Of a stretch of 64,000 nt of DNA, positions 5,092 through 60,232 are shown piece by piece. The notes under the pieces were generated by a model that had not been told where the DNA came from, did no database searches, and saw nothing but the letters and a program-made list of their open reading frames with translations. Both the position numbers and the translations under genes were made by a program. Source of the stretch: Myxococcota bacterium (GTDB taxonomy: Bacteria; Myxococcota; XYA12-FULL-58-9; JALHOP01). Where the stretch lies: assembly GCA_041288095.1 (NCBI GenBank), contig JBGGMJ010000089.1, positions 9,517 through 73,516 on the forward strand, written 5' to 3'. The stretch's first letter is position 1; the number at the start of each line of letters is the position of its first letter.

Positions 5092-6393
5092 ATGTCCAGC
5101 ATCGAAACGCCACCTGTCCGCCAGAGCGTGCAACCGGCGGCGAGCCCCGCTCCCGCCGCCGCCCCACGCGCAGCGCGAGCCCCCGCCGCCGCCACCCCCA
5201 CGGATGGCCCGCCCGCTCCTCGCGCCGCCGCTGCGACCCGCCTGATTCAGGGCCGGCCGAACCCCGCGATGCAGCTCGCGCCGCCGCGCGACGATGGCCC
5301 GCGTGGTTGTGCCCGCACGCCCTCGCCCGCCGACGGCCCGCGACGCCTCGTCGTCTCGCATCCATTCGACGCCAACGGCGACCGCTCCGGCGCTTTCGAA
5401 GTCCTGAACGTCGCGCCCAACGGGCAGCTCTCGCGCTCAGGCCGCTCGTTCACGCTCGAGACGGCGGCGAACTCGGGGACGATCGACTTCACTCCAGACG
5501 GCCAGGTGGGGCTCGTCGCGCTCGATAACGGCCGCATCGGTGTCTTTCGCCTCGACGCCGAGGGCAAACCGACCGTCGTGCACGAAGGCTTCGCGGGTAC
5601 CTTCCACGCGGGCAAGGTCGTGGTCGAGCCACGCGGCGACCGCGCCTTGGTCCTCGATCGCAACTGGAGCCACAACGGCGGTGGCGTCTATCAGGTCACC
5701 ATCGGGTGCGACGGGACGCTCACCGACCACGGGCGCGTCCTGGCCGCCCGGTCTCCAGGCGCCATTGCCTTCGCCGGCGACCGCGCCGTGGTCGCCGCCG
5801 CGAATGTCGGTGAGCTGGACCGCGAGGCGGATCCCGGAACGGAAAGCGTTCACGTGCTCGAATGGGGCCAGACTCCGCGGCGCGTCGGTGGTGCCGACGC
5901 CTTCGGCCACAACCAGGTGGTCGTCGGTGGCGCCGCCCTCACCAGCGACGGCAAGACCTTCCTCGTCGGCGACACCAACGGCTTCAGCGGTAACCTCAAC
6001 GCCGTCGCCGCCGTGACCCTCGATGAGAACGGCGCTCGCCCGGCCGGCGGCGTCCAGGTCGATGACCCCGCGGCCATCGCCACCTCCCCCTTCGGGCAAG
6101 TGGCCATCGTCTCGAGCCCGCTGACCGACTCACTCATCGTCCTCGACACCAACGCCCAAGACGGCAAGTGGCGGGTCCGCGGCCCCGTTCCGCACCGTGG
6201 CGCGGCGCCCCAGCTACCAGGCGATCTCGCGACCATCGACCGCGGCAACCTGCGCGGCAACGTCTACGTCTCCGAGAACGTGTCGGTGCGGCGCTTGGCC
6301 TTCCGACCGGACGGCTCCGTCGTCGACCTCGGGTCGCTGCAGTTCGGTCAGGACCTAAAGGACATCAGTGGCGCCATCGGCGTGACCAAGTAG
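5092..6393 (+). CDS. Beta-propeller protein (lactonase/YVTN-like) with Pro/Ala-rich N-terminal extension
   Basis: Blade-like repeats FTPDGQ, EPRGDRA, TSDGKT, SPFGQ; about 60 aa low-complexity N-terminus without a hydrophobic signal. Confidence 0.7.
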   Translation: MSSIETPPVRQSVQPAASPAPAAAPRAARAPAAATPTDGPPAPRAAAATRLIQGRPNPAMQLAPPRDDGPRGCARTPSPADGPRRLVVSHPFDANGDRSGAFEVLNVAPNGQLSRSGRSFTLETAANSGTIDFTPDGQVGLVALDNGRIGVFRLDAEGKPTVVHEGFAGTFHAGKVVVEPRGDRALVLDRNWSHNGGGVYQVTIGCDGTLTDHGRVLAARSPGAIAFAGDRAVVAAANVGELDREADPGTESVHVLEWGQTPRRVGGADAFGHNQVVVGGAALTSDGKTFLVGDTNGFSGNLNAVAAVTLDENGARPAGGVQVDDPAAIATSPFGQVAIVSSPLTDSLIVLDTNAQDGKWRVRGPVPHRGAAPQLPGDLATIDRGNLRGNVYVSENVSVRRLAFRPDGSVVDLGSLQFGQDLKDISGAIGVTK

Positions 6394-6406
6394 CGGACGC
6401 CGCAAC

Positions 6407-7312
6407 ATGACATTGTTGTCCGCCAAAGCGGTCGCACCGCTATTGCGCGCCACGGCTCGGTCCCGCTCCAGCGAGACCGAGCGCCCTTCCGACGTTTACG
6501 AGCCGCAGTACCGTGTCGAGCTCGACACGGATCGCGACGGCACCGTGAACGCCGATGAGCTGCAGCGGTTCGCGCAAGCTCGTTCACGCGTGTCGTGGAT
6601 TCCACTCTCGTCGATGCTCTCGACGGAGAAGCAGCTCGCGCTCCGCTCGACGCAGTTCGCGACGACGCAACAAGCGCTCGCAAGGTCGCTGGTGAAAGCC
6701 CGCGGCAGCGCCAATCAGGACGACGTCGAGGCGGTGGTCTCGCATCTCGTGCGCCTGCCGGCGAGCGTCCTCGTCGGCATTCAGCGCGCGGGCTTGTCGG
6801 TGGTCGTCTGCCGGGGCGGTGTCACGGACTACGTGAAGACGCTCGAGCGGGAGCCGGTCCGCGGGCACAAGGCCGGCGACTCCTGGGACAAGACACCCGG
6901 CACCGTGTGGAACCGCGAGGTCGTCATCGCCACGATGGAAAGCCTGCGCGTCCCCGGACAACGCATGGTGCCACCGCGCGGCCGTGGTCACGACACCTAC
7001 GACCTCATCTTGCACGAGCTCGGCCACGGCATCGCCCGCAACCTCGGGCAATTCGAGGGCACGAAGACGACCGCTGACAGGAGCGACGCGCACGCCGGCG
7101 CCACCTTCTTGGCGGCGCGGAACGAGGATTGGGATCGCTTGCGTCCGTACTATCGCCAAGACGGCAGGGGCAGCGGCGCCGGCGCCGACGAGACCTTCGC
7201 CGAATCGTTCGCCCGCTTCTACGGCGGCGACCCCTCACTCGAGCACGACTGGCCGGCGCTTTACCGCTTCTGGAACGACAACCGTCGCGCCATACCCGTC
7301 AGCGCTCGCTGA
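6407..7312 (+). CDS. Zinc metallopeptidase, anthrax lethal factor/Pro-Pro endopeptidase-like, with an N-terminal EF-hand-like loop
   Basis: LHELGH zinc motif plus downstream DETFAESFARFY; DTDRDGTVNADE loop; starts 13 nt after the upstream gene. Confidence 0.75.
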   Translation: MTLLSAKAVAPLLRATARSRSSETERPSDVYEPQYRVELDTDRDGTVNADELQRFAQARSRVSWIPLSSMLSTEKQLALRSTQFATTQQALARSLVKARGSANQDDVEAVVSHLVRLPASVLVGIQRAGLSVVVCRGGVTDYVKTLEREPVRGHKAGDSWDKTPGTVWNREVVIATMESLRVPGQRMVPPRGRGHDTYDLILHELGHGIARNLGQFEGTKTTADRSDAHAGATFLAARNEDWDRLRPYYRQDGRGSGAGADETFAESFARFYGGDPSLEHDWPALYRFWNDNRRAIPVSAR

Positions 7313-8991: not shown

Positions 8992-10962
8992 CTAACTCCC
9001 GGCAGGTTGGCGAGACTGCCGCCTGCGCTTCAATGACTCGAGCGCTTGGCGCTGCGTGTCGAACAACTCTGGATCAACATCACGTGCTTGTAGCGAGGCG
9101 CCTAGCTTCAGCCTCAGGAACGCGCTCGAGGTGTAACGCGTCACGCGCTCGTAGTAGCGCTCGGTGAGCTCGCCCACGAGCTTCGCGTAGGTGTCCGCGA
9201 GATGCGCGGGCACGCTGAAGCCGTCATAGTCGACTACCGCGCGAACGCGCCGGCCGAGCGGCTTGCAGACTTCGGCGACCGCGTCGCCGATGCGACGGAT
9301 GTCGTCCTCGTTACGAACGGTGAGGCCGGCGAAGTTGATGAACAACACTTCGCGCTTGGCGTCGTACTCGAAACGTGAAGCGAGCGGGCGTTCGTCGAGC
9401 GAGGCGCGCAGGCCCATGGGCGCGGTCAAGAAGATGCGCGCGTCCATGAGCTTCAAGGGCAGCTTCATCTCGGGCACGAAGTCCATCTGTCCGAGCACGT
9501 CGCGCTGCAGATCGACGCCGGGCGCGATCTCTTCGAGGCACAGCCCGGAGTCGGTGAGCCTGAACACCGCGCGCTCGGTGACCACCATCGTCTCGTGTCC
9601 GCTTTCGCGGGCTTGGGCGGCGCTAAAGGTCACCTGCTCGACCGCTTTGACGAACTTGCGGTTGCGACCCTCCGCGAGGATGCGCAGGCGGCCGTCGCCA
9701 ATCTCGAGCTTGAGGCCGCCGCAGGTGAAGGTGCCGACGAAGACGACCTTGCGCGCGTTCTGGCTGATGTTGATGAAACCGCCGCAACCCGCGAACGTCG
9801 CCCCGAAGCGGCTGACGTTGACGTTGCCCATGGCATCGACTTCGGCCATGCCCAGGTAGGCTTGGTCGAGGCCGCCGCCGTCGTAGAAATCGAATTGCTG
9901 ACTCTGGTCGACCAGAGCCTCGGTGTTCACCGCCGCGCCGAAGTTCAAGCCCGACGCCGGCAGTCCGCCGATGACTCCCGGCTCAGCCGTCAGCGTGACC
10001 AGGGGCAAGAGACCCTCTTCAGCGGCGACACCAGCGACGGACTCGGGCATGCCGATACCGAGGTTGATGACGGTGCCGGGGATGAGCTCACAGGCGGCAC
10101 GGCGGCCGACGACCTTGCGCGCATCCAAGGCGAGCGGCGGCACGCTCTCGAGAGCGACACGCAGCTCGCCGGAGAACGCGGGGCTGTAAGGCGTCGCGTA
10201 GGTTTGCGCATGATACTCGGCCGGCGCGACCGCGATGCAGTCGACCAGGGCGCCGGGGATCTTCACGCTGCGCGCGGGAATCGAACCGGCCTGCGCCAAG
10301 CGCTCGACCTGCACGATGACCACCCCGCCGCTGTTCTTCGCCGCCATCGCCATTGCCAGGTTGTCCAGGGTGAGCGCTTCGCGCTCCATGCTCACGTTGC
10401 CGTAGGGGTCGGCGGTGGTCCCGCGCAGAAAAACGACATCGATGGGAAAGGCACGGTAGAGCAGCCACTCCTTGCCGTGCATGTGAACGAGCTCGACGAG
10501 ATCGTCGGTGGAGCGCGCGTTGACCTTGCCGCCGCCATGGCGCGGGTCGACGAAGGTGCCGAGGCCGACGCGTGACAGCGTCCCCGGTTTACCGGCGGCG
10601 ATGTCGCGATAGAGGTGCGAGATGCAACCCTGCGGCAGATTGTAGGCTTCGATCTCGCCGGCGAGCGCCATCGCGCCCACCTTCGGGATGAGACCCCAGT
10701 GACCGCCGACAACCCGCTTTAGCAGACCAGGGGCCGCGAGCCGGTTGAGCCCGCGCAGCTTCCCGTCACCCTGCCCCGCCGCGAAGACGAGCGTGAGCCC
10801 ATCGGGTCGCTTGTGCGTGGCGTGGGCTCGGGCCAGAGCCTCGAGCAACCCATCGGGTGTGCCGATGCCGACGAACCCCGAAGTCGCGAGCGTGTTGCCT
10901 GGCTGTACCAAGGCCACGGCCTCATCGAGGCTCGCGACCTTGTTCACCGACGTCAACGCCAT
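8992..10962 (-). CDS. Fused acyl-CoA:acetate/propionate CoA-transferase (Pct/YdiF family) with C-terminal extension
   Basis: GHWGLIP, AYNLPQG, GLGTFVDPR, NLGIGMPE, LTAEPG (catalytic Glu), QFDFYDGGG, GCGGFINISQNA; start ATG 10962 after GAGGAG. Confidence 0.9.
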   Translation of the reverse strand: MALTSVNKVASLDEAVALVQPGNTLATSGFVGIGTPDGLLEALARAHATHKRPDGLTLVFAAGQGDGKLRGLNRLAAPGLLKRVVGGHWGLIPKVGAMALAGEIEAYNLPQGCISHLYRDIAAGKPGTLSRVGLGTFVDPRHGGGKVNARSTDDLVELVHMHGKEWLLYRAFPIDVVFLRGTTADPYGNVSMEREALTLDNLAMAMAAKNSGGVVIVQVERLAQAGSIPARSVKIPGALVDCIAVAPAEYHAQTYATPYSPAFSGELRVALESVPPLALDARKVVGRRAACELIPGTVINLGIGMPESVAGVAAEEGLLPLVTLTAEPGVIGGLPASGLNFGAAVNTEALVDQSQQFDFYDGGGLDQAYLGMAEVDAMGNVNVSRFGATFAGCGGFINISQNARKVVFVGTFTCGGLKLEIGDGRLRILAEGRNRKFVKAVEQVTFSAAQARESGHETMVVTERAVFRLTDSGLCLEEIAPGVDLQRDVLGQMDFVPEMKLPLKLMDARIFLTAPMGLRASLDERPLASRFEYDAKREVLFINFAGLTVRNEDDIRRIGDAVAEVCKPLGRRVRAVVDYDGFSVPAHLADTYAKLVGELTERYYERVTRYTSSAFLRLKLGASLQARDVDPELFDTQRQALESLKRRRQSRQPAGS

Positions 10963-11073
10963 GTCCAATGCTCCTCGCGCGACGGCGAGGATCGACTGGG
11001 GCACAACGTCGGGTCGAGCTCTCGCGACGACGCGGCGAGAATCCCCGCCGCGTCTCAGCCGCTACGCGCGGCC

Positions 11074-11343
11074 TTAGTCCTTGGATCCAACGAGGTCAAG
11101 CGTGCGCTCGGCGTAGCTGGTGACCGTCTTGCGCCACTGAGCGCTGAGGCTCTCGGCGGAAGCGATGACTTCCTTGGCCAAGCGACCGGCTTCGTCGACG
11201 GCCGAGTTCGCGGTCGCGACGCCCTGCTTCTCGAGCTTGTCGACCTGCGCAAGCTCCGCGAGCTTGGTGGCCGAGTCGGCCCACAGCTTGACCCAACCAA
11301 CGCCAAATTGCTGCATCTGCGAAAACACGCTGCTCTGATTCAT
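11074..11343 (-). CDS. Small helical protein, putative phasin (PHA granule protein)
   Basis: ATG 11343 after GAGGAG; 89 aa, Ala/Glu/Lys-rich and amphipathic; lies between phaR and the CoA-transferase/phaC, directly downstream of two operator-like palindromes. Function inferred from context. Confidence 0.6.
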   Translation of the reverse strand: MNQSSVFSQMQQFGVGWVKLWADSATKLAELAQVDKLEKQGVATANSAVDEAGRLAKEVIASAESLSAQWRKTVTSYAERTLDLVGSKD

Positions 11344-11412
11344 GGTCTTCTCCTCACGGAACTGGTTTCCAACAGCTTTTAGTACAGCCACCGGTGCAGG
11401 ATCAACAGTTTT

Positions 11413-11428
11413 TTGTTGCGCCGCAGCA
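11413..11428. promoter_or_regulatory. Putative PhaR operator 1 (TTGTTGCGCCGCAGCA)
   Basis: Near-palindrome with a TGC-N3-GCA core, repeated at 11524-11539. Confidence 0.7.
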
Positions 11429-11523
11429 TTTTCTTGCAAGGCGTTCTTACGCGCCATTTGAGGCCTCCGAGTGCGTGGGTTCGTCGCCCTGTCGCACCTA
11501 GGGCGGCGCGGAGTCAAGACTTC

Positions 11524-11539
11524 TTGTTGCGGCGCAGCA
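11524..11539. promoter_or_regulatory. Putative PhaR operator 2 (TTGTTGCGGCGCAGCA)
   Basis: 15/16 identical to operator 1; lies in the phaR-phasin intergenic region. Confidence 0.7.
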
Positions 11540-11543
11540 AAGC

Positions 11544-12032
11544 TCAGCGTTTACGGCGGCTCTTGGGCTTCAAGCTGCGGCGGAGCTCGGCCATCTCGCG
11601 GCGCAGCTCCTTGAGCTCGTCCTGGGCGGTCGGCGCCGGCGGCTCGGCGGGCGGCACCGGTGGCGGCGCCGGCGCGGGCGAGGGAAACGGTCTTGGCGCG
11701 GCGAACGGGTTGTAGAAGCTCCCCAGGCCATTGCGCGTCTGCTGGTAGAGGTCGAGCGCCCAGCTCACATAGCGGCCGAGGAAGTCGGCCAGAGGCTCTT
11801 CGCCCATGCGGATGAGCTGCACCAGCAACGCCGGCGGTAGCAGCCGAGCCGCGTTCTGGTCCTCGAAGATGATCTGAGCGAGCGTCGGCGCGGTGAGGTC
11901 GGCACCGGTCTTGGCGTCCTCGACGCGAACGTCGGCTCCGGCACGGATCCGCGCGGCGATTTCGTCCAAGCGGATGTAGCGACTGGCGTCCGTGTCGTAG
12001 AGGCGGCGGTTGTTGTACTTTTTGACGAGCAC
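11544..12032 (-). CDS. phaR: PHA synthesis repressor PhaR-like regulator
   Basis: N-terminal KKYNNRRLYDT...YI...DAKTGADLT...LAQIIFE...LIR signature; start may be GTG 12032 or 12062. Confidence 0.9.
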   Translation of the reverse strand: MLVKKYNNRRLYDTDASRYIRLDEIAARIRAGADVRVEDAKTGADLTAPTLAQIIFEDQNAARLLPPALLVQLIRMGEEPLADFLGRYVSWALDLYQQTRNGLGSFYNPFAAPRPFPSPAPAPPPVPPAEPPAPTAQDELKELRREMAELRRSLKPKSRRKR

Positions 12033-12104
12033 GAGCAGCAGCCTTGCGGCACTCGGTGGCACGCCGTCAAGACGGGCTCTGTCAAAGCGTCAGGCTCGAC
12101 GCAC

Positions 12105-12131
12105 GCAATCGCCGCCGCTGCGTGCCGATAA
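12105..12131 (+). promoter_or_regulatory. Sigma-28-like promoter GCAAT-N14-GCCGATAA
   Basis: Read directly; 49 nt upstream of ATG 12181. Confidence 0.6.
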
Positions 12132-12180
12132 CAACCTCGAGACGGAAACTGGGCCATTTTTTGGCCGCGGAGAACGCTCG

Positions 12181-12756
12181 ATGGCTTCGGCTCCTCCTGC
12201 ATTGGTCGCGCTTGCTCGCTCCCTACCGAGGGCAGCTGACCTCGCCTTCGAGGCACGCCGCCACGCCGCGCGATGCTCCGAGCAGTTGCAGCGCGCCGCC
12301 ACGAGCCTGCAACACCTGCGCGACCTCGTGAGCGAGCGCGCCGCGCCGGCGGATCTCGATCACGGCCGCTTACTCGACGTCGACGCTCACCTCATGGTCC
12401 TCGAGCAGAAGTCGCGCGTCTATGCCGCGATCTGCGCCACCATCGAAGCCTTCCATGACGCCTTGGGCCTGGCGCGCACCGCCCTCGACCGCCTCGGCTC
12501 ATCCTCCACGTCGCTCATGCGCGCCCTGCGCACGCAACCGCCGAGCACCTCGGCCGAGGACTGCCGGCGTGTCGTCAACGACCTGGTCGTCGAATACACG
12601 TCCCATGCTGACCGCTATAGCGACCTGGAAGCCGCGCTCGGCGACGCGCTCCCCGGCGACTTGCACCGGCCGCGGGCGGCTTTCGCGAACAACGCCAAGG
12701 CCACGAGCTGCATGACGACCGAGAAGACCACGAGCGCGGTGCGCGACCGATCGTAG
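12181..12756 (+). CDS. Hypothetical helical protein (3' end possibly rearranged)
   Basis: ATG 12181 after GGAG; protein-like to about 12670, then reads antisense through the MFS gene. Confidence 0.55.
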   Translation: MASAPPALVALARSLPRAADLAFEARRHAARCSEQLQRAATSLQHLRDLVSERAAPADLDHGRLLDVDAHLMVLEQKSRVYAAICATIEAFHDALGLARTALDRLGSSSTSLMRALRTQPPSTSAEDCRRVVNDLVVEYTSHADRYSDLEAALGDALPGDLHRPRAAFANNAKATSCMTTEKTTSAVRDRS

Positions 12757-13838
12757 AGCAGCCCGGTGACCACGCTGCCGGCGAACCAACCGGACCCGTA
12801 ACCCAGGTAGAACAAGCCGAAGGCGACGTTGCGTTTGCCTTCGGGCAGCTCGCCGGCAATCAGCGCCTTGAAGAGGGTGTCCTGGACGGCGTAGCCGACG
12901 CCCCAGAGCATGAGCCCCGCGAGCACCGCGGCGAATCCGCCAAAGAAGACGAGCGGCGAGAAAGCGGCCGAGAAGGTGATGCCGATCATCACCGCCGGCA
13001 TGCCGATGCGGTCGAAGAGCCTCCCGAGGATGAGGCTGGTCAGGACGCCGCCGAGAGTCGCAATGGCGAGGAGCGCCGGCAGCCACGGGCCGGTCACGGT
13101 CTCGGTGATCGCGAGGTGAAGCGAGATGAGCTCGAAGCTCATGAGACCCGCCGCGAAGAAGCCGCCGGCGATCATGATGAGCCAATAGGTCGCGGAGAAC
13201 TTGGTGCCGCGCGGCGCGGTCGACGTCTCGAAGCGCTCCGGCAGTGGAAAGACCAGGCGCGCGACGACCAGAGCCACCAGAGCGAGCAAGGCAGGCACCG
13301 TGAGCAACAGGTAACCGTCGCGATACCCCGCATGACGAGCGAGGACCCACGCCATCAACAGTGGACCAAGCGTGGCGCCCGTCTCGTCGAGAGCTGTATT
13401 CACGGCGTACACCCAGCCGCGTCCGAGTGTCCCGGTGGTGTAGGAGAGCATGGCCTCGATGGTCGGCTTTCGCAGCGCCCGACCGACACGCTCGCCGATC
13501 ACGAGAGCGGCGGCGACCGGCAAGCTGCCGGTGAACGCCAAAACAGGCACGACCAGAACGTTGATCGCGTAGCCGACGAAGGTGACCAGCCAATAGCGGC
13601 CCGTACGATCGGCGACATACCCCGCGCCTAGCCGCAGCCCGTACCCCAAGAACTCGCCGAAGCCAGCGATGACGCTGACGGCCGCGGCGCTGGCGCCGAG
13701 AGAGCCCAGGAAGGGTCCGTTGACGCTCGCCCCACCCTCGTAGACGATGTCGGCGAAGAGATTGACGACACCGAGCATCAGCACGAACGCGAAAGCGGAC
13801 GTGGCAATGGAACGCCGATGAAGCTTGGACGGAGTCAC
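12615..13838 (-). CDS. MFS transporter
   Basis: About 12 hydrophobic segments; GYVADRTGR and GRLFDRIG motif-A repeats; ERVGRALR. Confidence 0.9.
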   Translation of the reverse strand: MTPSKLHRRSIATSAFAFVLMLGVVNLFADIVYEGGASVNGPFLGSLGASAAAVSVIAGFGEFLGYGLRLGAGYVADRTGRYWLVTFVGYAINVLVVPVLAFTGSLPVAAALVIGERVGRALRKPTIEAMLSYTTGTLGRGWVYAVNTALDETGATLGPLLMAWVLARHAGYRDGYLLLTVPALLALVALVVARLVFPLPERFETSTAPRGTKFSATYWLIMIAGGFFAAGLMSFELISLHLAITETVTGPWLPALLAIATLGGVLTSLILGRLFDRIGMPAVMIGITFSAAFSPLVFFGGFAAVLAGLMLWGVGYAVQDTLFKALIAGELPEGKRNVAFGLFYLGYGSGWFAGSVVTGLLYDRSRTALVVFSVVMQLVALALFAKAARGRCKSPGSASPSAASRSL

Positions 13839-45431: not shown

Positions 45432-45847
45432 CGGCTGACCAGGTACGCACCGACCGCAATCGCGGCGACGCCGGCAACCCGCGTCAGCGTAATGCTCTCG
45501 CCCAAGAACAAGACAGCGAGCACCAGGGTGACCGCCGGATAGGTCGCGGTCAGGGCGACAGCCGATGACGACGGCCCGGAGCGCATGGCGTAGAGCAGCG
45601 CCACGATGCCGATGCCGACGAGCACCGCGGCGGCCGTGGCCCAGGCGCTCCCCGCCAGCGGATACGTCAGCGGCTCCTTCCAGTAGCGCGCCAGCGCCCA
45701 GTAGGCCGGGACCAGCGCAACGCCGGCGATGGCGTAGACGATCTGAACCGAGAGCGGTCCCATCGTGTTCATCGCCATGCGCAGGGCGAATGCCCAGATG
45801 CCCCAGCTCACGGTCGCGAGCAGGACGAGCCAATTCGTCGAACCCAT
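45428..45847 (-). CDS. Single-domain EamA/DMT family transporter
   Basis: SWGIW...[16 protein letters not shown]; about five TM segments. Confidence 0.82.
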
Positions 45848-45905
45848 GGGCGCTCGATAGCACGGCCGTTGACCACGGACCTATGGAACCGTTACGCGAG
45901 AGCCA

Positions 45906-47363: not shown

Positions 47364-47378
47364 GACGCATGCTAGTGT

Positions 47379-47762
47379 TTAGCTACGCGGCCGCCACCCC
47401 TCGGTGACGAACGGCTCGATGGCGTTCCAGAGCTCCGTCGCGCGAACCGGCTTACAGAGGACATCGGCCGCGCCGGCCCGCTTGAGGATGGTGACGTTCG
47501 GGTGTCCGAGCGTCGTGATGACGATGACCGGGATGTCTTTGGTCGTCGGCTGGCTCTTGAGCAGAGCAAGGGCCTGCACCCCGTCCATCACCGGCATCTG
47601 GATGTCGAGCAAGATGAGGTCCGGCCGCGCCTCGAGCGCGATCTTCGCGGCCTGCAAGCCGTCCTCGGCGTAGAGGAGCGCCAAGCCCCGCTTGGTGAGG
47701 TATTCGCCCTCGAGCTGGCGAAAGGCGGGTGAGTCGTCGGCGATCAGCACTGTCTTCGGCAC
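47379..47762 (-). CDS. Single-domain response regulator
   Basis: IADDS, LLDIQMPVMDG, VITT, CKP. Confidence 0.9.
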   Translation of the reverse strand: MPKTVLIADDSPAFRQLEGEYLTKRGLALLYAEDGLQAAKIALEARPDLILLDIQMPVMDGVQALALLKSQPTTKDIPVIVITTLGHPNVTILKRAGAADVLCKPVRATELWNAIEPFVTEGWRPRS

Positions 47763-47800
47763 ACGAGACCTCACACGTTGCTCTCAGAGCACATCCAAGC

Positions 47801-48289
47801 TTAACCCCTGCCCCGCCGCGCCGCCTCGATCTTCGCAATGTCGATCTTCTTCATCGTCATCATCGCCTCGAAAACGCGCTTCGCCACCGCCCTGTCGGGA
47901 TCAGCGACACCTTCGTTCAACTGTCGCGGCGTGATCTGCCACAAGAAGCCCCAGCGGTCCTTGCACCAACCACAAGCGCGCTCCTCGCCGCCGTGCTCGA
48001 CGATGGCGTTCCAGTAGCGATCGGTCTCCGCTTGGTCTTCGGTCTCGACCATGAACGAAACCGATTCGTTGGGCTTGAAGTTGGGGCCGCCATTGAGGCC
48101 GACGAACTGCATGCCGAGCACCGTGAACTCGACTGTCAGCTCGACTCCCTGCTTGCCGCCGGGAAAGTCACCGGGCGCCGCCATCGCCTTGCCGACGTGA
48201 CTGTCGGGAAAGACGCTCGCGTAGAACTCCGCCGCTTTGCGCGCTTCGCCGTGGTCGAACCACACGCAGGTCAGCATCCTCTTGGCCAT
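47801..48289 (-). CDS. VOC/PhnB-like (3-demethylubiquinone-9 3-methyltransferase-like) protein
   Basis: CVWFD, AAEFY, LNGGP, CGWCKDRWG..WQI, MKKIDIA. Confidence 0.92.
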   Translation of the reverse strand: MAKRMLTCVWFDHGEARKAAEFYASVFPDSHVGKAMAAPGDFPGGKQGVELTVEFTVLGMQFVGLNGGPNFKPNESVSFMVETEDQAETDRYWNAIVEHGGEERACGWCKDRWGFLWQITPRQLNEGVADPDRAVAKRVFEAMMTMKKIDIAKIEAARRGRG

Positions 48290-48348
48290 CGGAACCCTCC
48301 CGGTTGAGGGGAGTGAACATGCAGCCGATGGGCCGGCGCCGCAATGGT

Positions 48349-50522: not shown

Positions 50523-51851
50523 CTACATCAGGTGCTGCAAGACCGTCGCAATCGCCAACGCACTCCCCGGCCGATTGTTGGGGTTCCGGTCGAGACAGCG
50601 CACGACCATGTTATCCAACGTCTTCGGCACGGCGATCCCCGCCACCGTGCTCGGCGGCCGCGGCGTGTCTTGGATCTGCCGCACAATCATCTCGGCCCAC
50701 CCCGAGGCCTTGAACGGCAGCTGCCCCGTGAGCATCGCGAACATCACCACGCCCAAGCTGTAGATGTCCGTGCGCGCATCCACCGGCTCTCCCATGAGCT
50801 GCTCGGGAGCCATGAACCCCGGCGATCCAACGACCTCACCCGCGACCGTCTGCGGCCTGTCGACTGGTGCCCCGCGGCGCAGCTTTGCGATGCCGAAGTC
50901 GAGCAGCTTCACGAAGTCCGGGGTCCCCGCGAGGTTCACCAGCATGATGTTCTGGAGCTTGAGGTCGCGGTGGACGATGCCCGCGCGGTGGACGGCGTCG
51001 AGCGCGCTGCAAAGCTGCTGGCCGATGACCACAATCCGCGATAGCGGCAACGGCCCCTTGCGCAGGAGCTCTTGGCTCAAGTTTGGGCCGACCAGAAGCT
51101 CCATGACGATGAACGCATGGTCCTCGCCGACGACGAGGTCGGTGATTTGCACGATGTTGTCGTGCGAGATCTGATTCACCAGCCGCGCTTCATCGTAGAA
51201 CCGTCGCAAGGCCGCGGGGTCATGCGCGTGCTCGTCTTTCAAGACCTTCACGGCAACCCGACGACCGAGCGCCGTGTGCTGAGCGAGAAATACCTCGCCC
51301 ATGCCGCCCGCCCCGATGCGGTCGAGGATCGTATACCGACCCAGCGTGTCGCCCTTCTTCACCGTCCGCGACACTTCCCGCGGCGGAGGAGGAGGCACGG
51401 CTACGGGCGGCGTGCTCGCCTCGAAAGGCGGCGGCGGCGGCGTCTCGCGCGCGGCCATCGGGTTCCGAGGGCGCGAACCGCCCTGCTGTGTCGACAGCTC
51501 CGCGACGTAAGCCTTGAGCTCCGCCTGCAGGCGCGGGTCGATGCCGAGGAAACGCATCCCCATCCCCGGTGGTCGGTTGCGACTCGACTCGGAGCGCTCG
51601 CGCGTCCACACCACCTGCACCCGACTCGTGATCTCGAGCGACGGGCCCAACGTGCTCGGCAACACGATGTCGACATCGACCTCCGCGCCCGGCCGCAATA
51701 GCGGCACGCCGGAGACGAACAGCCCTGTCTCGCTGATGTTGACGGTGCTCCAGCTCGGACGCTGCGCTGCGTTCCGCGGCACCACGGGCGCGAGCACCGA
51801 ACATCTTGGTGCGGCCTTGAGTGAGGCGAAGCGCGTTCCAGTCTCGTCCAC
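50523..51851 (-). CDS. PilZ-like domain - Ser/Thr kinase fusion, copy 2
   Basis: KAAPR, NISETGLFV, GMGMRF; GAGGMG, HRDLKLQN, DFG, FMAPE; colinear with 25555-26946. Confidence 0.9.
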   Translation of the reverse strand: MDETGTRFASLKAAPRCSVLAPVVPRNAAQRPSWSTVNISETGLFVSGVPLLRPGAEVDVDIVLPSTLGPSLEITSRVQVVWTRERSESSRNRPPGMGMRFLGIDPRLQAELKAYVAELSTQQGGSRPRNPMAARETPPPPPFEASTPPVAVPPPPPREVSRTVKKGDTLGRYTILDRIGAGGMGEVFLAQHTALGRRVAVKVLKDEHAHDPAALRRFYDEARLVNQISHDNIVQITDLVVGEDHAFIVMELLVGPNLSQELLRKGPLPLSRIVVIGQQLCSALDAVHRAGIVHRDLKLQNIMLVNLAGTPDFVKLLDFGIAKLRRGAPVDRPQTVAGEVVGSPGFMAPEQLMGEPVDARTDIYSLGVVMFAMLTGQLPFKASGWAEMIVRQIQDTPRPPSTVAGIAVPKTLDNMVVRCLDRNPNNRPGSALAIATVLQHLM

Positions 51852-51901
51852 CGCTTGCTCCCAGCGACTCGATCCGGCGTCGATTCATGCCGACACGAGA
51901 G

Positions 51902-51930
51902 ATCGTATTCAGTGGCTCCCGCCAACGCAA
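51902..51930 (-). promoter_or_regulatory. Sigma-70-type promoter TTGCGT-N17-TACGAT
   Basis: Conserved with 27022-27049. Confidence 0.55.
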
Positions 51931-53171: not shown

Positions 53172-54152
53172 TCAAGCGTCGTCGTTGATCAGATACCGAT
53201 GCGCCCTTTCGAAGGGCCAGTAGTACAAGACGTAGGTCGGCTTGTTTTCAGAGTCGTAGTACTGCTCGCAGACGACGCAATCCCGCGTGAGCTGGCCGAC
53301 GCGCTTGTTGTAGGCGTCGACCAGCTCCTTGCGTTGCGGCAAGTCGCGGTCGAGCGCGACGATGGCGTCACGGACCGTCAAGGCGTCTTCTTGAAGCTGG
53401 GCGACGGTGTTCCACCCCGAGGGCGCGTTCACCCAGTAGACCGTGGCTTCCGGCATGTACGCGCGGAACGCGTACGAAGCGCGGAACTGCAGCTCGATCT
53501 GCGTCGAGTAGTCGGCGGCGACCCGCGACCAGTCACCGCCGCGCTTGGCGACGAACGCGGCCGGCACCAGCGCCGCGTCGAGGGTGCGCCGGCGAATCGT
53601 CGCCTTGGCCTTGGCATTGCCATTCGTGGACTGAAGGTCGAGGTTGAGGTCGCCCTGCTTCGCCAGGTCCTCGAGCTTGACCTTGGCCTCGAAGGTCCCG
53701 AGGAGGTCGTTGCTCTTGAGCGAGTCGTAGTCGAAGAGCTCGAAGCGCAAGGTCACGGTGCCGGCCGCGACGTCGAGCTGGCTGTGTGAGAGCGTGAACG
53801 GCTGCGGGTCTTTGACGTCCACCCACTGGTTCTTCCCGGCTTTGACCCAGGGCATGCGCGGATAGTCGGCGACGCCGATGAAGAGCTCGCCCTTGCCGAA
53901 GACTTCGCCGACCTTCGTAGCGCTGAAGCCGGTGACCGTTACAGCGTACAGGGCGTGATCGTGGCGGCTGGGATCGGGTTGCGAAACGATGGCGTTGGTG
54001 CGTCCGACGCCGTGTACCCACGACGGTCGGTCTGGACCGATCGAGAGCTTGTCGACAGCCGCGGTCTTGGTCGTCGCGATTTGCGCGGGGCCCGAGATGA
54101 TGGGCTTCTCGCCGACGAGGACCTTCGCGGAAGTGCGGGTGACGACGTTCAT
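53172..54152 (-). CDS. Protein with a C2-like domain
   Basis: TLRFELFDYDSLKSNDLLGTFE resembles the C2 Ca-binding loop 3; ATG after GGAG. Confidence 0.65.
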   Translation of the reverse strand: MNVVTRTSAKVLVGEKPIISGPAQIATTKTAAVDKLSIGPDRPSWVHGVGRTNAIVSQPDPSRHDHALYAVTVTGFSATKVGEVFGKGELFIGVADYPRMPWVKAGKNQWVDVKDPQPFTLSHSQLDVAAGTVTLRFELFDYDSLKSNDLLGTFEAKVKLEDLAKQGDLNLDLQSTNGNAKAKATIRRRTLDAALVPAAFVAKRGGDWSRVAADYSTQIELQFRASYAFRAYMPEATVYWVNAPSGWNTVAQLQEDALTVRDAIVALDRDLPQRKELVDAYNKRVGQLTRDCVVCEQYYDSENKPTYVLYYWPFERAHRYLINDDA

Positions 54153-55476: not shown

Positions 55477-57555
55477 CTACCGTTGATTGAGCGGCCCGAG
55501 CTTGGCGACGAAGCCACCGTTACGCGCGAGCTTCACCGTGAGCGGTGTGCCCGGATACAACGTCGAGCTGGTGCGCCGGTAATCCGCGGCCTTGGTGTCG
55601 GCGTCCGGCCCGTCCTCTATCGCGGTCATGCGAACAGCGCCCGTCAGAAAGCTCGTGTCGAGCTCGAGGCTGCGTGCCGGCCCCGCCGCGAGCACCGCGA
55701 GGTACCAGGTGTCACCGCTGCGCTTGGCGACCGCGAAGGTCGAATCGTCGACGTGCAACACCCTCGATTCGCACCAGGTCGCCGGCAGCCGCGTATAGAA
55801 GTCGAGCATGGCGGGGTCGGCCTCGACCTGGGCCGGGTCACCGCCGAAGACCTGCAAGACCCCCGGGTAGGCAAGACGCGTGGCGAGCTCATTGGCGCGC
55901 GTGCCTTGCGCCTGCACGCGTGGCCGCGTCGCCACGAACGTCTCCGGCTGCGCGTTCAGCATGCTGCCGCCCTCGTAGTCGAAGGGCGCGTACGAGCGGA
56001 TGGTGGCCAAGTCGATGCGGTGCTGAGGCGAGACCGTCCGCGACCAGCCGTTGAACTCGTGGGAGAGCGCTGCTTCCCACCCCACGACGTTGGGATAGCG
56101 CAGGTGCAGGCCGGTCGGCTTGCCGACACCATGGTAGGAGACGAGCAGACGGTGACGCGCGGCGGCGGCGGCGAACGTCTCCATGAACCGATGCATGGCC
56201 GCGTCGTCGCGATTCATGAAGTCGACCTTCACCCCGGACACACCGAGCTTCGCAAAGAAGTCGAGGCTCGCCGCGATGTCGCGCGACACCGCGGTGTGCT
56301 GCGCCCAGAGCAACACGCCCACGCCCTTCTGCTTGCCATAGCGGATGACCTCTTCGAGATCCAAGGCCGGGTTGCGCTTCGTCCAGTCGCTGGCGTCGCA
56401 CCAGCCGTCATCGACGATGATGTGCGAGAGGCCGGCGCGCGCGGCGAAGTCGACGTAGTACTTGTACGTCGGCGTGTTCAGACCCGGGGTAAAGCCGACC
56501 TTGGCGGGGTCGAGGCTCGGCTTCGCTTCGATCATCCACTCGTCGGTCGCCGTGACGTGCGGTGGCACCCAGGAGAAGTCCTCGGCCGCCGCCGCCGCGA
56601 TGCTCTCGTCCGCGAGCCGCGCCATGAAATCACGGCCGACGAGATCGGCAAGCGAGCGGCCGACCTGGAGGACGCGCCAGGGATACACGCGCGTGCCCTC
56701 GTTGCTCTCGACGAGGTGGGCGTGGCGCTCGGTGACGGTCTCGACGCGCCAAAACTTGAGGGCCTCGGTGACCTTCGTCCGCTTTGGCGCACCCGGAGCG
56801 TCGAGCATGAAGCCGCCTTCGGGGACGCGCTTCATCCAAGACCCCGGGTAACCCAAGACCTGCGCTTCGCTGACACCGACCCAATGATCGTTGCAGCGGA
56901 AGACCGCCGGCATCTGCGCCAAACGGAACGACGTGACATCACCGACGCGGCGCCTGGTGAACGGATGCTCGTAGCTGTCGTGATAGGCGTCGCCGGCGAG
57001 GGCACTCTCGAGGGCGTTCGGCATCATCGCCCGCATCTCGGCGGCGTCGTTGAACGGCAAGGTGAAGGTCTCGCCGGTGACGGTCACCGGTCCATCGGCA
57101 TGACCGCGAAAGCGCAATGCAAGACCGTCGTTGGCGACCCGCACTTCCAGGGACAACGTCGGCGTGAGACGCAAGGACGTCTCTTCGAAGCGATCGGGAA
57201 TAGCGCTCGCCCACAGGGCCTGCGGTGGCCGCACGGTGCGATTCACCGAGCGTCGGCTGACCCCGAGCGGACGGGCCGGGGTACCGACGCCACCATACTC
57301 GCGCGTCACCAAGTCGAGTTGGCCCCCGGCAAGCACCGGGCGGCCGTCGACGATGACGCTGTAGGCAAGCGAGGGCGAGAAGCGGACGACGCAGCGGATG
57401 CGACCGTCGGGCGAGCAGGTCTCGACTGGGGCGACCGCGCGAGCTCGTGGAAGCGCCGGTAATGAAACGGCCAGGGATGCCTGAGCCCCGCGTGAGGCGA
57501 CGGCCGGCTGCGAAAGGGGCGTCGCGGAGGGTCCGGTGGGGCGTGAGATCTGCAT
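55477..57555 (-). CDS. Glycoside hydrolase family 97 with a low-complexity N-terminal leader
   Basis: SPDG, RVANDGLALRF, PWRV, YKYYVDFAA, VDDGW, GVKVDFMNRDD, YHG..KPTG..YPN, LARNGG. Confidence 0.88.
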   Translation of the reverse strand: MQISRPTGPSATPLSQPAVASRGAQASLAVSLPALPRARAVAPVETCSPDGRIRCVVRFSPSLAYSVIVDGRPVLAGGQLDLVTREYGGVGTPARPLGVSRRSVNRTVRPPQALWASAIPDRFEETSLRLTPTLSLEVRVANDGLALRFRGHADGPVTVTGETFTLPFNDAAEMRAMMPNALESALAGDAYHDSYEHPFTRRRVGDVTSFRLAQMPAVFRCNDHWVGVSEAQVLGYPGSWMKRVPEGGFMLDAPGAPKRTKVTEALKFWRVETVTERHAHLVESNEGTRVYPWRVLQVGRSLADLVGRDFMARLADESIAAAAAEDFSWVPPHVTATDEWMIEAKPSLDPAKVGFTPGLNTPTYKYYVDFAARAGLSHIIVDDGWCDASDWTKRNPALDLEEVIRYGKQKGVGVLLWAQHTAVSRDIAASLDFFAKLGVSGVKVDFMNRDDAAMHRFMETFAAAAARHRLLVSYHGVGKPTGLHLRYPNVVGWEAALSHEFNGWSRTVSPQHRIDLATIRSYAPFDYEGGSMLNAQPETFVATRPRVQAQGTRANELATRLAYPGVLQVFGGDPAQVEADPAMLDFYTRLPATWCESRVLHVDDSTFAVAKRSGDTWYLAVLAAGPARSLELDTSFLTGAVRMTAIEDGPDADTKAADYRRTSSTLYPGTPLTVKLARNGGFVAKLGPLNQR

Positions 57556-57564
57556 GGTCACGCT

Positions 57565-57592
57565 TTTTCCGCGCTGGCACCGACGAGGTTGC
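57565..57592 (-). promoter_or_regulatory. Sigma-28-like promoter GCAAC-N15-GCGGAAAA
   Basis: Exact GCAAC, -10 with two mismatches; 9 nt upstream of ATG 57555. Confidence 0.45.
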
Positions 57593-57667
57593 GCGAACGA
57601 GCGGCCCTCGAACCTGACCCGAGTGCACTAGAGCGCGTCAGGCCCGAACGTGGCATTGTCTGTGAGG

Positions 57668-58825
57668 ATGCTCGCCGCTCTCGTTTCGCTGTTCCTCGCG
57701 CAAGCCACCCCCGAGGCCCCGGTCGCGGAAAAAGCGATGTTGCTGGTGATGCCCCTGCGCGCCGAGCCCAAGCTCGCGGCGTCGGCGCGTGCGCTGGACG
57801 AGCTCATCCTCGAGGCAGTCGATGGTCTCAAGCGCTACCAGGTGCTCGGCTCGAGTGACCTGAACGCGCTGCTCGGCGTCGAGAAGATGAAGGACGCGAT
57901 TGCCTGCGACGACACGGTGTGCGCCGCCGAGATTGGTGGCGCTTTAGGCGCTCCGTACCTGCTCGCGGGAGAGCTGCGCGCATTGGACCAGCAGGTGGTC
58001 TTGTCGTTGCGCCTCATGGATACGAAGAAGCAAACGGTGACGGCGCGAGCGACGGCGCGGGGATCGACGAGCGCCGAATCGCTGAGCCAGATGATGGCGC
58101 AGGTGGTGGGCACTTGCTTCAAGACCACCGTGCAAACGGTTGCCGTGCAGACGCCGAGCGCCGAGAGTGACTACAGCGGCTACATGAGCCTCGTCACCGA
58201 GCTCGGTGGCTACGCGACGCGCAGCGAGTACTCGAGTTTCTTGGGCAAGTTGGAAGAGCTCAAGGCACGCGCGGCGAAGGTGAAGACTCCGCCCGGCGGC
58301 GCCTCCGGCGAGGAGCTGCTGACGTATTACCAGGCCCTCGCCTGCTTCACGCTCAAGCGCGAGGCGTGCCTGAGAGCAGCGTCGGCGCGTTATCAAAAGG
58401 ATTGGGCGGCCGGCCTCTACCGCACCGGCATCGACTCCTTCGTGACGACGATGGACGACCAGAAGACCGCCCAGCGCGACCACGAAGCCGAGGTGAAGGA
58501 GCGCATCGCGGACATTCGCGAGAAGGCGAAGGCCGGCACCTATGATGCGTTGCAGACCGAAGAGCTCGTCGCGCTCGCGTATTATGGCGGACAAGACTAT
58601 GCGCCGGCGGCGAAGCACTTCGCGCAGCTCCTCGACAAGCTGTATGCGGAGAAGCCCGCGCAGCTGGACAAGATCATGAGCACGACGTCACTCGCGGTCC
58701 TCGCCTTGCAGCAAGTGGGAGAATTCGACGCGGCTCGCGCGGCCTTGAAGAAGGCGGAGACGCTGGACGCTAAAGCGTATCGGACGAGCGGCCTGCAGCA
58801 GACGGCGCGGTCATTGCCGAAGTAG
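57668..58825 (+). CDS. Exported protein with an N-terminal TolB-N/CsgG-like domain and helical (TPR-like) C-terminus
   Basis: Short signal MLAALVSLFLAQ; CDDTVCAAEIGGALGA..L.G motif. Confidence 0.7.
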   Translation: MLAALVSLFLAQATPEAPVAEKAMLLVMPLRAEPKLAASARALDELILEAVDGLKRYQVLGSSDLNALLGVEKMKDAIACDDTVCAAEIGGALGAPYLLAGELRALDQQVVLSLRLMDTKKQTVTARATARGSTSAESLSQMMAQVVGTCFKTTVQTVAVQTPSAESDYSGYMSLVTELGGYATRSEYSSFLGKLEELKARAAKVKTPPGGASGEELLTYYQALACFTLKREACLRAASARYQKDWAAGLYRTGIDSFVTTMDDQKTAQRDHEAEVKERIADIREKAKAGTYDALQTEELVALAYYGGQDYAPAAKHFAQLLDKLYAEKPAQLDKIMSTTSLAVLALQQVGEFDAARAALKKAETLDAKAYRTSGLQQTARSLPK

Positions 58826-59326
58826 CGGACGGCGAGGCCAGAGCGCGACCAACCAGAACGGCAAGAAGGCGATGAGCTCGACGATGGTCACGAAGAGACC
58901 GCGCGCGCTCAGCATGCCGACGCCGATGGGAGCGACGGGGAGCGGTCGCACCGGCGCGAAATAGCGCGCGGTATCGAACGGCCACAAGAGCGCGACACCG
59001 AGGCCGCCGTCGGTGAGCGTGTCCAACAAACCGTGGCTCATGAGGACGAGCGTCGCCCAAAACGCCAGGTGTCTGCGATTGCGGAATGCAAGGCCGACGG
59101 TGACGCCGAGGACGAGAGCCGTCGCCAAAGCGTGAGTGGCGCCGCGATGCCCGAACGGCGCTTCGTAGGGGATGCGCAAAGCGAAGGCGATCACGTCGAG
59201 GTCGGGCGCGAGGGAGAGCGCAGCAAAGCCGATCGTCGCGGCAATACGCTCGCGCGGTCGAGCGTCTGCTCCGCACCACATGCGCGCCGCCGCCGCGCCC
59301 ACCGCTACGTGACCGAGACTGGCCAT
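58811..59326 (-). CDS. YdjM-like membrane metal-dependent hydrolase
   Basis: GH, PDLD, GHRGATH, SHGLLD, LLWPF. Confidence 0.9.
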   Translation of the reverse strand: MASLGHVAVGAAAARMWCGADARPRERIAATIGFAALSLAPDLDVIAFALRIPYEAPFGHRGATHALATALVLGVTVGLAFRNRRHLAFWATLVLMSHGLLDTLTDGGLGVALLWPFDTARYFAPVRPLPVAPIGVGMLSARGLFVTIVELIAFLPFWLVALWPRRPLLRQ

Positions 59327-59357
59327 GGCCTACCCTTGAGCAAAGGCGAAGTCTGGC

Positions 59358-59385
59358 GCAACCCGAGACGCGCCTACGCCGACAA
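59358..59385 (+). promoter_or_regulatory. Sigma-28-like promoter GCAAC-N15-GCCGACAA
   Basis: Read directly; 80 nt upstream of ATG 59466. Confidence 0.6.
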
Positions 59386-59465
59386 TGCAGACGGACGAGT
59401 CACCGAATTGGCGGGTTTGCGCCCGCGCGCCCAGGAACAACGTGGAAAACCGAGTGGAAGAGGAC

Positions 59466-59930
59466 ATGCTCGAGCTGCGCCGCCTCAACGCGACAGTGCT
59501 CGAGCACAGCAGCGAGCCGTCTCCATTCCGCACCACCGAGGTGTTGTGCGTAGCGCGTGACGGCAACGAAATCGCCTTCTGCGAGCCCCAGTGGATCGAT
59601 CAGAAGCTGCGCGCCATCCTGGAGGTGGCAAGCTCCCTGCTGCGTGACGCGACGAGCGCCAACGCGACGGCATACGCCGCCGCTCTCTTGTGGATGGGCA
59701 TCATCGCGGTCCACCCATTCGCGGACGGCAACGGCCGCACCGCCTTCCGCTTCATCGTCTCCCGCCTCGACCGCTCCAAGCACCGCATCGACGCGGCCGA
59801 CTACCCCATTCTGCGCCGCTATCTCATCCGCGGCGACGTCAACAACGATCTCCGTAATCTCACCGTCATCATCAACAGTCTCATCAAGCGAGCAGGAGCC
59901 CAATCATGCCCAACCCAATCGGCGGCGTAG
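59466..59930 (+). CDS. Minimal Fic/Doc family protein
   Basis: HPFADGNGRTAFR; ATG 59466 after GAGGA (the ORF-track start 59385 overlaps the promoter motif). Confidence 0.85.
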   Translation: MLELRRLNATVLEHSSEPSPFRTTEVLCVARDGNEIAFCEPQWIDQKLRAILEVASSLLRDATSANATAYAAALLWMGIIAVHPFADGNGRTAFRFIVSRLDRSKHRIDAADYPILRRYLIRGDVNNDLRNLTVIINSLIKRAGAQSCPTQSAA

Positions 59931-60232
59931 CCCCGGCCAGTGCCGGCACAGGTGTCGGAAGCGGCGCCGCGCCCACCCTGTCCGCTGAAATGGACCGCCA
60001 GCTCGAGCTCTTGTCCGTCGACTATGTCGATCACTACGACAAGGCTGTCGTCATCGGCACGAATGACCCGCGGTACATCGCGGAGCAAAAGCGTTCGCTG
60101 CTCGCCAGCATGCGGACCGCCGCCACCGCGCATTGCTCAGACCGTCGCTACGATCTCAAGGATTGCATCGACGAGCTGATCCGTCGCGGCACGATCCAGC
60201 ACAACCTCAATATGGAAATGTTCAACCGCTAG
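59906..60232 (+). CDS. Small hypothetical protein co-transcribed with the Fic gene
   Basis: AGGAG RBS; 25-nt overlap with the Fic gene; starts MPNPIGGVAPASAGTG. Confidence 0.7.
   Translation: MPNPIGGVAPASAGTGVGSGAAPTLSAEMDRQLELLSVDYVDHYDKAVVIGTNDPRYIAEQKRSLLASMRTAATAHCSDRRYDLKDCIDELIRRGTIQHNLNMEMFNR

Follow-up and report, generated by a model that had tools for sequence, protein, structure and literature searches.

The window analyzed here, 64,000 nucleotides from an uncultured Myxococcota lineage (G000:C89:9517-73516; assembly of 5.85 Mb in 212 contigs, 66% GC, 90% completeness), encodes eight proteins, P1 to P8, which an initial annotation had described as a family with disordered leaders, resembling those of type III secretion substrates, in place of signal peptides. 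The observation is real but overstated. The eight are a mixed bag, with no single family and no visible regulon, and their heads, as we call these N-terminal regions, are intrinsically disordered N-termini of a kind common in this high-GC genome. Five of the proteins, P1, P2, P3, P6 and P7, lack a classical signal peptide although their domains are of types usually exported or directed to membranes, and the head they carry is translated. We give a probability of about one half to the reading that these five are lineage-specific signal-less derivatives, in which the head is either an inherited tether (P1, probably P7) or a disordered N-terminal region. Such derivatives would most likely be cytoplasmic or be exported by a non-Sec route.

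All eight N-terminal peptides that had been listed are exact translations of the DNA, in position as well as in strand. As a measure of a hydrophobic core we used a hydropathy heuristic, the highest 10-residue Kyte-Doolittle mean within the first 70 residues (KD10). The core is indeed lacking throughout: maxima range from 0.64 to 1.78 in the eight, compared to 2.2-3.3 in signal-bearing neighbours from the same window, and by this heuristic none of them shows the n- and h-region of a signal peptide or a lipobox. There is also no room for a signal further upstream, since stop codons lie 8-47 codons before the ATGs and the frames in between are not hydrophobic. The described richness in Ser, Thr, Pro and Ala (S/T/P/A), taken as their share among residues 2-26, applies to six of the eight (0.48-0.68), while P5 (0.40) and P6 (0.36) are near the genome median of 0.32.

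One of the five is P1 (5092-6393, + strand, 433 amino acids (aa)). Its Pro/Ala-rich disordered head (about aa 1-68, nt 5092-5295) is followed by a conserved Cys region and a beta-propeller-like body, the latter matching the Pfam Lactonase profile just below the cut-off (20.4 versus 21.7 bits). For comparison, up to 41 genomes of relatives were available, among them the genus mates G001 (97% complete), G002 and G003. Homologs within the genus occur in G002 (80% identity) and G003 (62%) and start with the identical M-S/T-S/T-I pattern, again without a hydrophobic core. Of 22 homologs outside the genus, 19 have hydrophobic N-termini (KD9 of at least 2.2), two more show a lipobox by eye, and one is truncated where its contig ends; all 22 possess a long Gly/Ser/Thr/Ala-rich low-complexity linker before the propeller. 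An order-wide search for P1 added no genome to the 22 found before, and a pattern search of genome contigs with P1 gave 56 matches with no relative among them. Because the 21 homologs that can be read carry a lipoprotein signal and a linker at the very site of the head, the latter is the family's own tether, which the genus kept when it lost the signal. Consequently, the P1 head is not a grafted leader, as had been proposed, but the family linker that remained after signal loss. The family thus resembles tethered lipoproteins, with the P1 head standing where the linker follows the lipobox in the 21 readable homologs; the difference lies in the three genus members, P1 included, which lack both signal peptide and lipobox. 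Within the genus the P1 head has a ratio of nonsynonymous to synonymous substitution rates (Ka/Ks) of 0.29-0.44.

A similar case can be made for P7 (55477-57555, - strand, 692 aa; head of 46 aa, nt 57418-57555). All three Pfam domains of glycoside hydrolase family 97 (GH97) are found above cut-off (PF14508, GH97_N, 1.6e-30; PF10566, GH97, 6.7e-64; PF14509, GH97_C, 7.2e-16), so that P7 is predicted to be a full three-domain GH97 glycosidase; the match to the NCBIfam alpha-galactosidase equivalog (397.7 bits) is below its cut-off of 800. The Ser/Pro/Ala-rich head directly abuts the conserved SPDG start of the GH97 N-domain. In contrast to P7, 52 of 57 homolog rows show a hydrophobic signal before SPDG; the five without one comprise a 99% fragment of P7 itself, a single row that begins at the domain, and three rows that are fragments or fusions. 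P7 is found in no genus mate and in only one of 40 relatives. P7 probably lost its signal in a similar manner as P1, in this case after horizontal acquisition. Its reading frame contains no ATG, GTG or TTG between aa 1 and aa 74, while the domain begins at aa 48.

P3 (19362-20324, - strand, 320 aa; head of 27-47 aa, nt 20184-20324) belongs to a large family, with 1041 representative clusters at E <=0.001, and combines a Pro/Ala/Thr-rich head with a catalase-related domain. The AlphaFold2 model has a pLDDT of 91, with low values in the head. Its best Foldseek match is 3e4y, the 33-kDa catalase-related protein of Mycobacterium avium subsp. paratuberculosis (probability 0.99, E 8.7e-4), and all structural matches listed are catalase-fold proteins; the model therefore suggests a catalase-related fold, although at a TM-score of only 0.33. 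The P3 family is without a Pfam model: no Pfam family was common to the 13 proteins scanned (12 members and P3), and searches of PDB sequences with P3, as well as with P6, gave nothing below E 0.3. For 83 rows, namely P3 and 82 of 150 listed representatives (long fusions, short rows and partial matches left out), the N-termini were sorted into 46 of signal type, 20 of leader type, 10 head-less and 7 other; about 13 of the 20 leader-type rows are devoid of any hydrophobic stretch. On a quick tree, in which borderline rows were counted as signals so that 15 strict leader rows were left, 13 of these 15 fall into one well-supported set of 32 rows, together with 10 signal-type, 4 head-less and 5 other ones. 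The head label changes eight times on this tree, at least three times forced by its starred branches, and none of 500 shuffles needed as few changes. Heads and signal peptides would thus have replaced each other at least three times in the subfamily of P3. In sum, the proposed replacement of a Sec or lipoprotein signal by a disordered leader fits P1 and P7 when compared to their homologs, and P3 in part. No P3 was found in the genus mates, and the gene lies in a strain-specific island. The only possible starts before aa 76 are aa 1, 9 and 18, with the domain beginning at about aa 45, and a database copy of the protein starts at Met18 (303 aa). A few rows of the family (P0062-P0211) are fused to PTHB1 or ankyrin-RCC1-BTB eukaryote-type architectures, or to DUF2515.

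P2 (6407-7312, + strand, 301 aa) starts 14 nt after P1, and this P1-P2 operon is also present in G002 and absent from G003. A short polar head (about aa 1-30) is followed by an EF-hand loop, with sub-threshold Pfam matches, and by a zinc metalloprotease domain with a HELGH site. The ATLF profile PF07737 is matched with 36.3 bits (cut-off 27.4, E 6e-9), and chains of the Pro-Pro endopeptidase Zmp1 (PPEP-1) are matched in the PDB at E 5e-5. Profile and HEXXH zinc site together predict a zinc metalloprotease of the ATLF or Pro-Pro-endopeptidase type. P2 and its homologs differ from PPEP-1/Zmp1 in their N-terminal EF-hand loop and in the lack of a Sec signal, and the matches are weak (E 5e-5 to 6e-9). 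No hydrophobic signal was found in the homologs from G002, G015 and G040 or in P0213-P0215, while the G020 copy is cut at the contig start. Their heads comprise 11-30 aa and differ in length as well as make-up, their composition not being conserved; the P2 head has a Ka/Ks of 0.69, compared to 0.19 for the domain.

P6 (53172-54152, - strand, 326 aa) is a genus-only protein: three of 41 genomes encode it, with one paralog in addition, and a word-indexed search of 5.8 billion sequences yielded just four proteins, three homologs of 76-77% identity and one 100%-identical fragment of 249 aa. It consists of a disordered head of 58 aa (nt 53979-54152), a C2-like beta-sandwich (aa 60-198) and a helical tail. 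The head is conserved in G002 and G003, the first 22 residues being well conserved in the three species, and its Ka/Ks is 0.37-0.44. No Pfam or NCBIfam family was matched. A model from five sequences has a mean pLDDT of 51 (core 60-86, head low); on this low-confidence model the best structural match is the C2 domain 2nq3 (Z 9.4, root-mean-square deviation 3.1, 114 aligned residues), and C2 domains dominate the 50 structural matches shown. No alternative start exists before aa 100. Of the activities that had been guessed for the set, zinc protease and GH97 stand, the C2 fold and the catalase-related fold are suggested by the models, and the beta-propeller of P1 is a sub-threshold Lactonase match only.

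In P1, P2, P3, P6 and P7 the head cannot be removed by choosing a later start without cutting into the domain. Furthermore, the heads of P1, P2 and P6 have pairwise Ka/Ks values of 0.29-0.69 against 0.14-0.35 for the bodies; these within-genus values are rough, with Ks at 0.4-1.0 and hence near saturation. Judged by such ratios the three heads are under purifying selection, and from the reading frames all five heads can be taken as really translated.

While five of the proteins deserve attention, the eight as a set do not form a unit. Their heads differ in sequence and length, their bodies have different folds, and no homology was found among them; with no sequence common to the leaders, the word family can only mean a class. 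Nor is the composition of the heads rare. N-termini without a core and with an S/T/P/A share of at least 0.48 occur genome-wide in 369 of 4245 proteins (8.7%) with a longest-ORF gene caller and in 321 of 4685 (6.9%) with a codon-based one, and at a share of at least 0.56 these fractions are 3.1% and 2.4%. Within the window we counted 9 of 59 where 4-5 were expected at the lower threshold, and 4 of 59 where 1.4-1.8 were expected at the higher one. This is a modest excess over chance at best.

Proteins of several kinds carry similar heads. Since the longest-ORF caller is crude and missed some genes, while the codon-based caller trims disordered heads, starts from neither are reliable. Among 1974 start-consistent proteins, for which the two callers place the start identically, 54 have a head with an S/T/P/A share of at least 0.52, and 51 of these were scanned against Pfam together with one extra protein from a screen for paralogs. 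Fifteen of these 52 are plainly cytoplasmic by Pfam, with housekeeping or regulatory functions: RelA/SpoT, Topo VI-B, a sigma-70 factor, NAD-GDH, a soluble methyl-accepting chemotaxis protein, DAHP synthase, a PilT-like ATPase, a hybrid kinase, an aldehyde dehydrogenase, an aminotransferase, CMP kinase, an intracellular polyhydroxybutyrate depolymerase, an M20 peptidase, a DUF1015 protein and a cNMP/receiver protein. Seven are of hydrolase types (M36-like, GH3, M1-like below threshold, AXE1, PGAP1-like lipase, PLD and GDPD), two are other proteins, one of them a true lipoprotein that passed the filter, and 28 belong to no family. As the same head composition occurs on housekeeping proteins, composition alone is no mark of export and cannot serve as the specific type III signature it had been taken for. 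A screen for paralogs within the genome in which a head stands in place of a signal gave four candidates, about two of them credible, although its power was low; the credible ones are a GDPD protein (C18:6859-7722) and a GH3 protein (C76:20597-23017), whose paralogs have ordinary signal peptides. Similar-headed signal-less hydrolase types in G000 further include an M36-like metalloprotease, a PLD and a PGAP1-like lipase, the five loci being C90:14289-16154, C76:20597-23017, C5:7116-8603, C18:6859-7722 and C129:43597-44685.

The eight had also been regarded as a co-regulated arsenal under a common promoter motif. A de novo search of the 200-nt upstream regions, made without that motif at hand, revealed no word in more than three to four of the eight, while shuffled sequences, mismatches allowed, reach a mean of 3.2-3.6 and a maximum of 4-5 of 8; likewise, no exact word of at least nine bases is common to three or more of the regions. 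For P2 and P8 there is practically no intergenic DNA upstream. Thus, no shared upstream motif rises above the shuffles, and neither the motif nor the arsenal found support. One upstream element was noticed elsewhere in the window. Two paralogous genes for PilZ-domain Ser/Thr kinases (25555-27028 and 50523-51908; 74-82% DNA identity in 300-nt blocks) are both preceded by a 44-nt element, D20, which is 80% identical between them and contains TTGC(A/G)T and TACGAT boxes. It is likely a promoter kept since the duplication of the kinase gene. As a common element of the eight D20 was rejected, since it is confined to the upstream regions of these two genes.

Several observations weigh against our reading of the five as signal-less derivatives. 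Five signal-less proteins of exported type in one 64-kb window are, in our judgement, more than expected. For a bacterial cytoplasm, a zinc protease of secreted type with a Ca-binding EF-hand (P2), a protein with a C2 domain (P6) and a GH97 of periplasmic type that depends on Ca (P7) are odd cargo. The conservation of the first 22 residues of P6 suggests a functional head. In leader-type rows of the P3 family the heads measure 15-114 aa, at least 27 in all but one, while the signal-type rows that were read have just a short stretch between signal and domain; consequently, the P3 head is no leftover tether. Moreover, the heads are free of Cys, His, Trp, Tyr and Phe and contain half as much Arg as translated intergenic DNA, a bias that argues against random read-through, with the caveat that the heads were picked by composition. 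Finally, proteins of unknown function with similar heads are encoded beside type III secretion system (T3SS) genes.

Such a system exists in this genome. As the initial annotation had noted, no secretion apparatus is encoded in the window. The type III export gate, whose absence would have spoken against the idea, is present: SctV, SctR and SctQ score above the NCBIfam cut-offs of the injectisome equivalogs, SctV with 850.8 bits against 692 for hrcV while below the FlhA cut-off, and SctU, S, T, N, L and J as well as a YscO-like protein were detected too. The genes are split over three contigs, with the one SctV on C31, the one SctU on C41, and a cluster on C92 that comprises SctT, S, R, Q, a FliK-like and a YscO-like protein, SctN, SctL, a FliG-like protein, SctJ and a weak SctI-like protein. 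Flagellin was not found in the 90%-complete genome, nor was the sheath of a type VI secretion system (T6SS; PF05943). No secretin is encoded on the T3SS contigs, while three are located elsewhere in the genome; matches to the needle family PF09392 were sub-threshold only (best 25.5 bits, cut-off 29.4), and a homolog of the Tad protein CpaB is present. By its gene content, the genome thus encodes a non-flagellar T3SS without a linked secretin and without an above-threshold needle. As far as the cited texts describe it, the needle-less T3SS* of Myxococcus xanthus has the same make-up, a sorting platform and an inner-membrane export apparatus, and here as well there is no secretin on the T3SS contigs, no needle above cut-off and a Tad-type CpaB (PMC12075869; PMC12428579; PMC10849154). 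The system described here differs in that it stems from an uncultured lineage, has an LcrH/SycD-like TPR protein beside SctU and is split over three contigs.

Some features of the T3SS loci are worth recording. At C41:1086-5144 (L004), SctU is followed by an unknown protein of 170 aa, then by a TPR protein of 168 aa, and lastly by another unknown protein, truncated at 291 aa where the contig ends; all unknowns there have polar disordered heads. The TPR protein matches the SycD/LcrH equivalog (E 1.7e-21, 76 bits, below the cut-off of 104.8); a chaperone of the translocator type would not be expected in a system that looks needle-less. Within the T3SS cluster on C92, at 10570-13679 (L015), DUF4781 and a weak RelA_SpoT-like region (E 0.0076) are found in a protein of 779 aa, directly after which come an HD_4 (SpoT-hydrolase-like) protein of 256 aa and a GNAT acetyltransferase. 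The DUF4781/HD_4 pair could be a toxin of nucleotide-alarmone type and its antidote, placed in a secretion cluster. The cluster is also interrupted by a Kup potassium transporter. While G001, G002 and G003 each contain two full-length FHIPEP (SctV/FlhA) genes, G000 contains one, and a second FHIPEP system may reside in its unassembled 10%.

Substrate signals of injectisomes are uncleaved, disordered and polar N-termini with few acidic residues and no hydrophobic core, carried by enzymes whose site of action is outside the producing cell. The heads of our exported-type enzymes look similar in this respect, and the apparatus is found in the same genome; they differ by the lack of a linked chaperone, of a motif shared among the eight and, with the promoters of the T3SS operons outside the comparison, of any sign of T3SS-linked regulation, and by the occurrence of the same composition on housekeeping proteins. 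One may ask if the P1/P2 pair, P3, P6 and P7 are exported by the needle-less T3SS with the disordered head as secretion signal, an explanation we consider possible, if rather doubtful. With neither needle nor secretin of its own, such a system would export into the periplasm, and hence a swap of a Sec signal for a type III signal would keep the destination and alter only the control of export. This would fit the replacement of signals by heads in P1, P7 and the P3 subfamily, the translated and constrained heads, the T3SS with SctV, SctR and SctQ above cut-offs and with neither an above-threshold needle nor a linked secretin, the Tad CpaB homolog, the sub-threshold LcrH/SycD-like chaperone beside SctU, and the missing T6SS sheath. 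In addition, the reviews and the 2025 Kil-pilus paper, in their passages on the M. xanthus T3SS*, call its effectors only potential or hypothesised (PMC12075869; PMC12428579; PMC10849154).

However, type III export has to cope with at least 15 cytoplasmic housekeeping proteins of the same head composition, with the lack of a promoter common to the eight, and with a P1 head that is an inherited linker. There is no linkage either: the T3SS genes are on C31, C41 and C92, and the eight on C89. An adjacent chaperone was not detected, as the profile scan found no chaperone family among the window genes and the Atlas look-up of a small acidic neighbour (4478-4864) gave nothing usable. The P2 head varies in length and composition among close homologs, and head-less relatives of P3 in the same clade suggest cytoplasmic forms. 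In addition, SctV occurs in 39 of 41 relatives, and among these are the four genomes of the family in which the P1 homolog is a lipoprotein, so that the presence of the T3SS does not follow whether P1 has a head or a signal. A phyletic link between T3SS and heads was consequently rejected as uninformative, the system being nearly universal among the relatives. We therefore prefer to regard the five as signal-less derivatives.

Export by another non-Sec route or with a non-classical signal, be it the twin-arginine translocation (Tat) pathway for P4, release by vesicles or lysis, or Tad-like machinery, is improbable in our view. The Tad CpaB homolog and the three secretins would suit it, and P4 offers an RRR motif followed by a weakly hydrophobic stretch; that stretch reaches a KD10 of only 1.48 and the P4 head is perhaps untranslated. 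By inspection, without a Tat predictor, no twin-arginine motif is present in the heads of the other seven (P1-P3 and P5-P8), and inspection of the eight, with no dedicated predictor run, likewise showed neither a prepilin-type nor a C-terminal sorting signal.

It is equally hard to believe that the heads are start-codon artefacts, meaning that translation really begins further downstream, the heads being untranslated upstream stretches that stay open because high GC makes stops rare. Calling the longest ORF does lengthen heads in this genome, and the two callers agree on the start (both coordinates) of only 2127 genes out of 4621 and 5093, respectively; the public gene call for P3 begins at Met18, and the P7 head has a GC content at third codon positions of 0.68 and a codon log-odds of -3. 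However, P7, P6 and, beyond aa 18, P3 are without a usable start before the domain, genus mates preserve the heads of P1, P2 and P6 in frame, with Ka/Ks below 1, and Shine-Dalgarno-like sites precede the proposed ATGs of P5 and P8. At most, start artefacts account for P4 (24598-25491, - strand, 297 aa). The proposed head of this basic protein (isoelectric point 10.8), aa 1-45, is doubtful, with a codon log-odds of -9 up to a better-fitting GTG at aa 46, where the codon-based caller starts.

Nothing points to export of P4, P5 and P8, which are small proteins or orphans, and none of the three belongs to a Pfam or NCBIfam family. P4 and P8 have no homologs in 40 relatives, and the Atlas look-up for P4 gave nothing usable. 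P5 (52805-53170, + strand, 121 aa) is small and basic, is convergent with P6 and has a head of ordinary composition; a good Shine-Dalgarno-like GAGGGGAG stands before its ATG, and its sole match in 40 relatives covers aa 74-121 with 88% identity at a contig end of G003. P8 (59906-60232, + strand, 108 aa) has a Gly/Ala/Ser-rich head and an AGGAG 12 nt upstream. Its start overlaps by 25 nt the end of the upstream gene (59385-59930), to which the Fic domain belongs.

The remaining window genes, as seen in Pfam and NCBIfam profile scans, are mixed and ordinary, including polyhydroxyalkanoate synthesis, an RpoD-like sigma factor, Ser/Thr kinases, response regulators, a GH3 protein and several lipoproteins with normal signals. 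A comparison with the syntenic 80 kb of G002 shows P1, P2 and P6 as conserved genes and P3, P4, P5, P7 and P8 as part of strain-specific islands; no counterpart exists there for 27 of the 59 genes in the window, and in G001, P1, P2 and P6 had no match. The window is hence a mosaic with islands at 19362-25533, 29486-32477, 41649-50511 and 55477-63817. Genes without a G002 counterpart include those for an FHA protein, a kinase, several lipoproteins, an EGF-domain protein, a GH3 protein, the Fic protein and a 1105-aa nuclease-helicase. At 30858-32477 a 539-aa protein combines eukaryote-type EGF_3, cEGF and EGF_CA domains with Gly-rich repeats, while Gly-rich 9-nt repeats of the families D2 and D6 form the tail of a small RRM-type protein (28606-28971, - strand).

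Taken together, these results call for caution: at 66% GC a core-less, S/T/P/A-rich N-terminus is common and is found on RelA, sigma factors and CMP kinase as well, so that it cannot by itself mark an effector. One might speculate that the needle-less T3SS is a second inner-membrane export route beside Sec, between which proteins switch by exchanging their signal peptide for a head, an idea we hold to be unlikely. For the question of T3SS* substrates our data nevertheless provide candidates, namely the Ca-binding zinc protease and the propeller protein paired with it, together with one protein each of the C2-domain, catalase-fold and GH97 types. If the second-route idea were true, a myxobacterial T3SS* would have its first candidate substrates in P1/P2, P3, P6 and P7.

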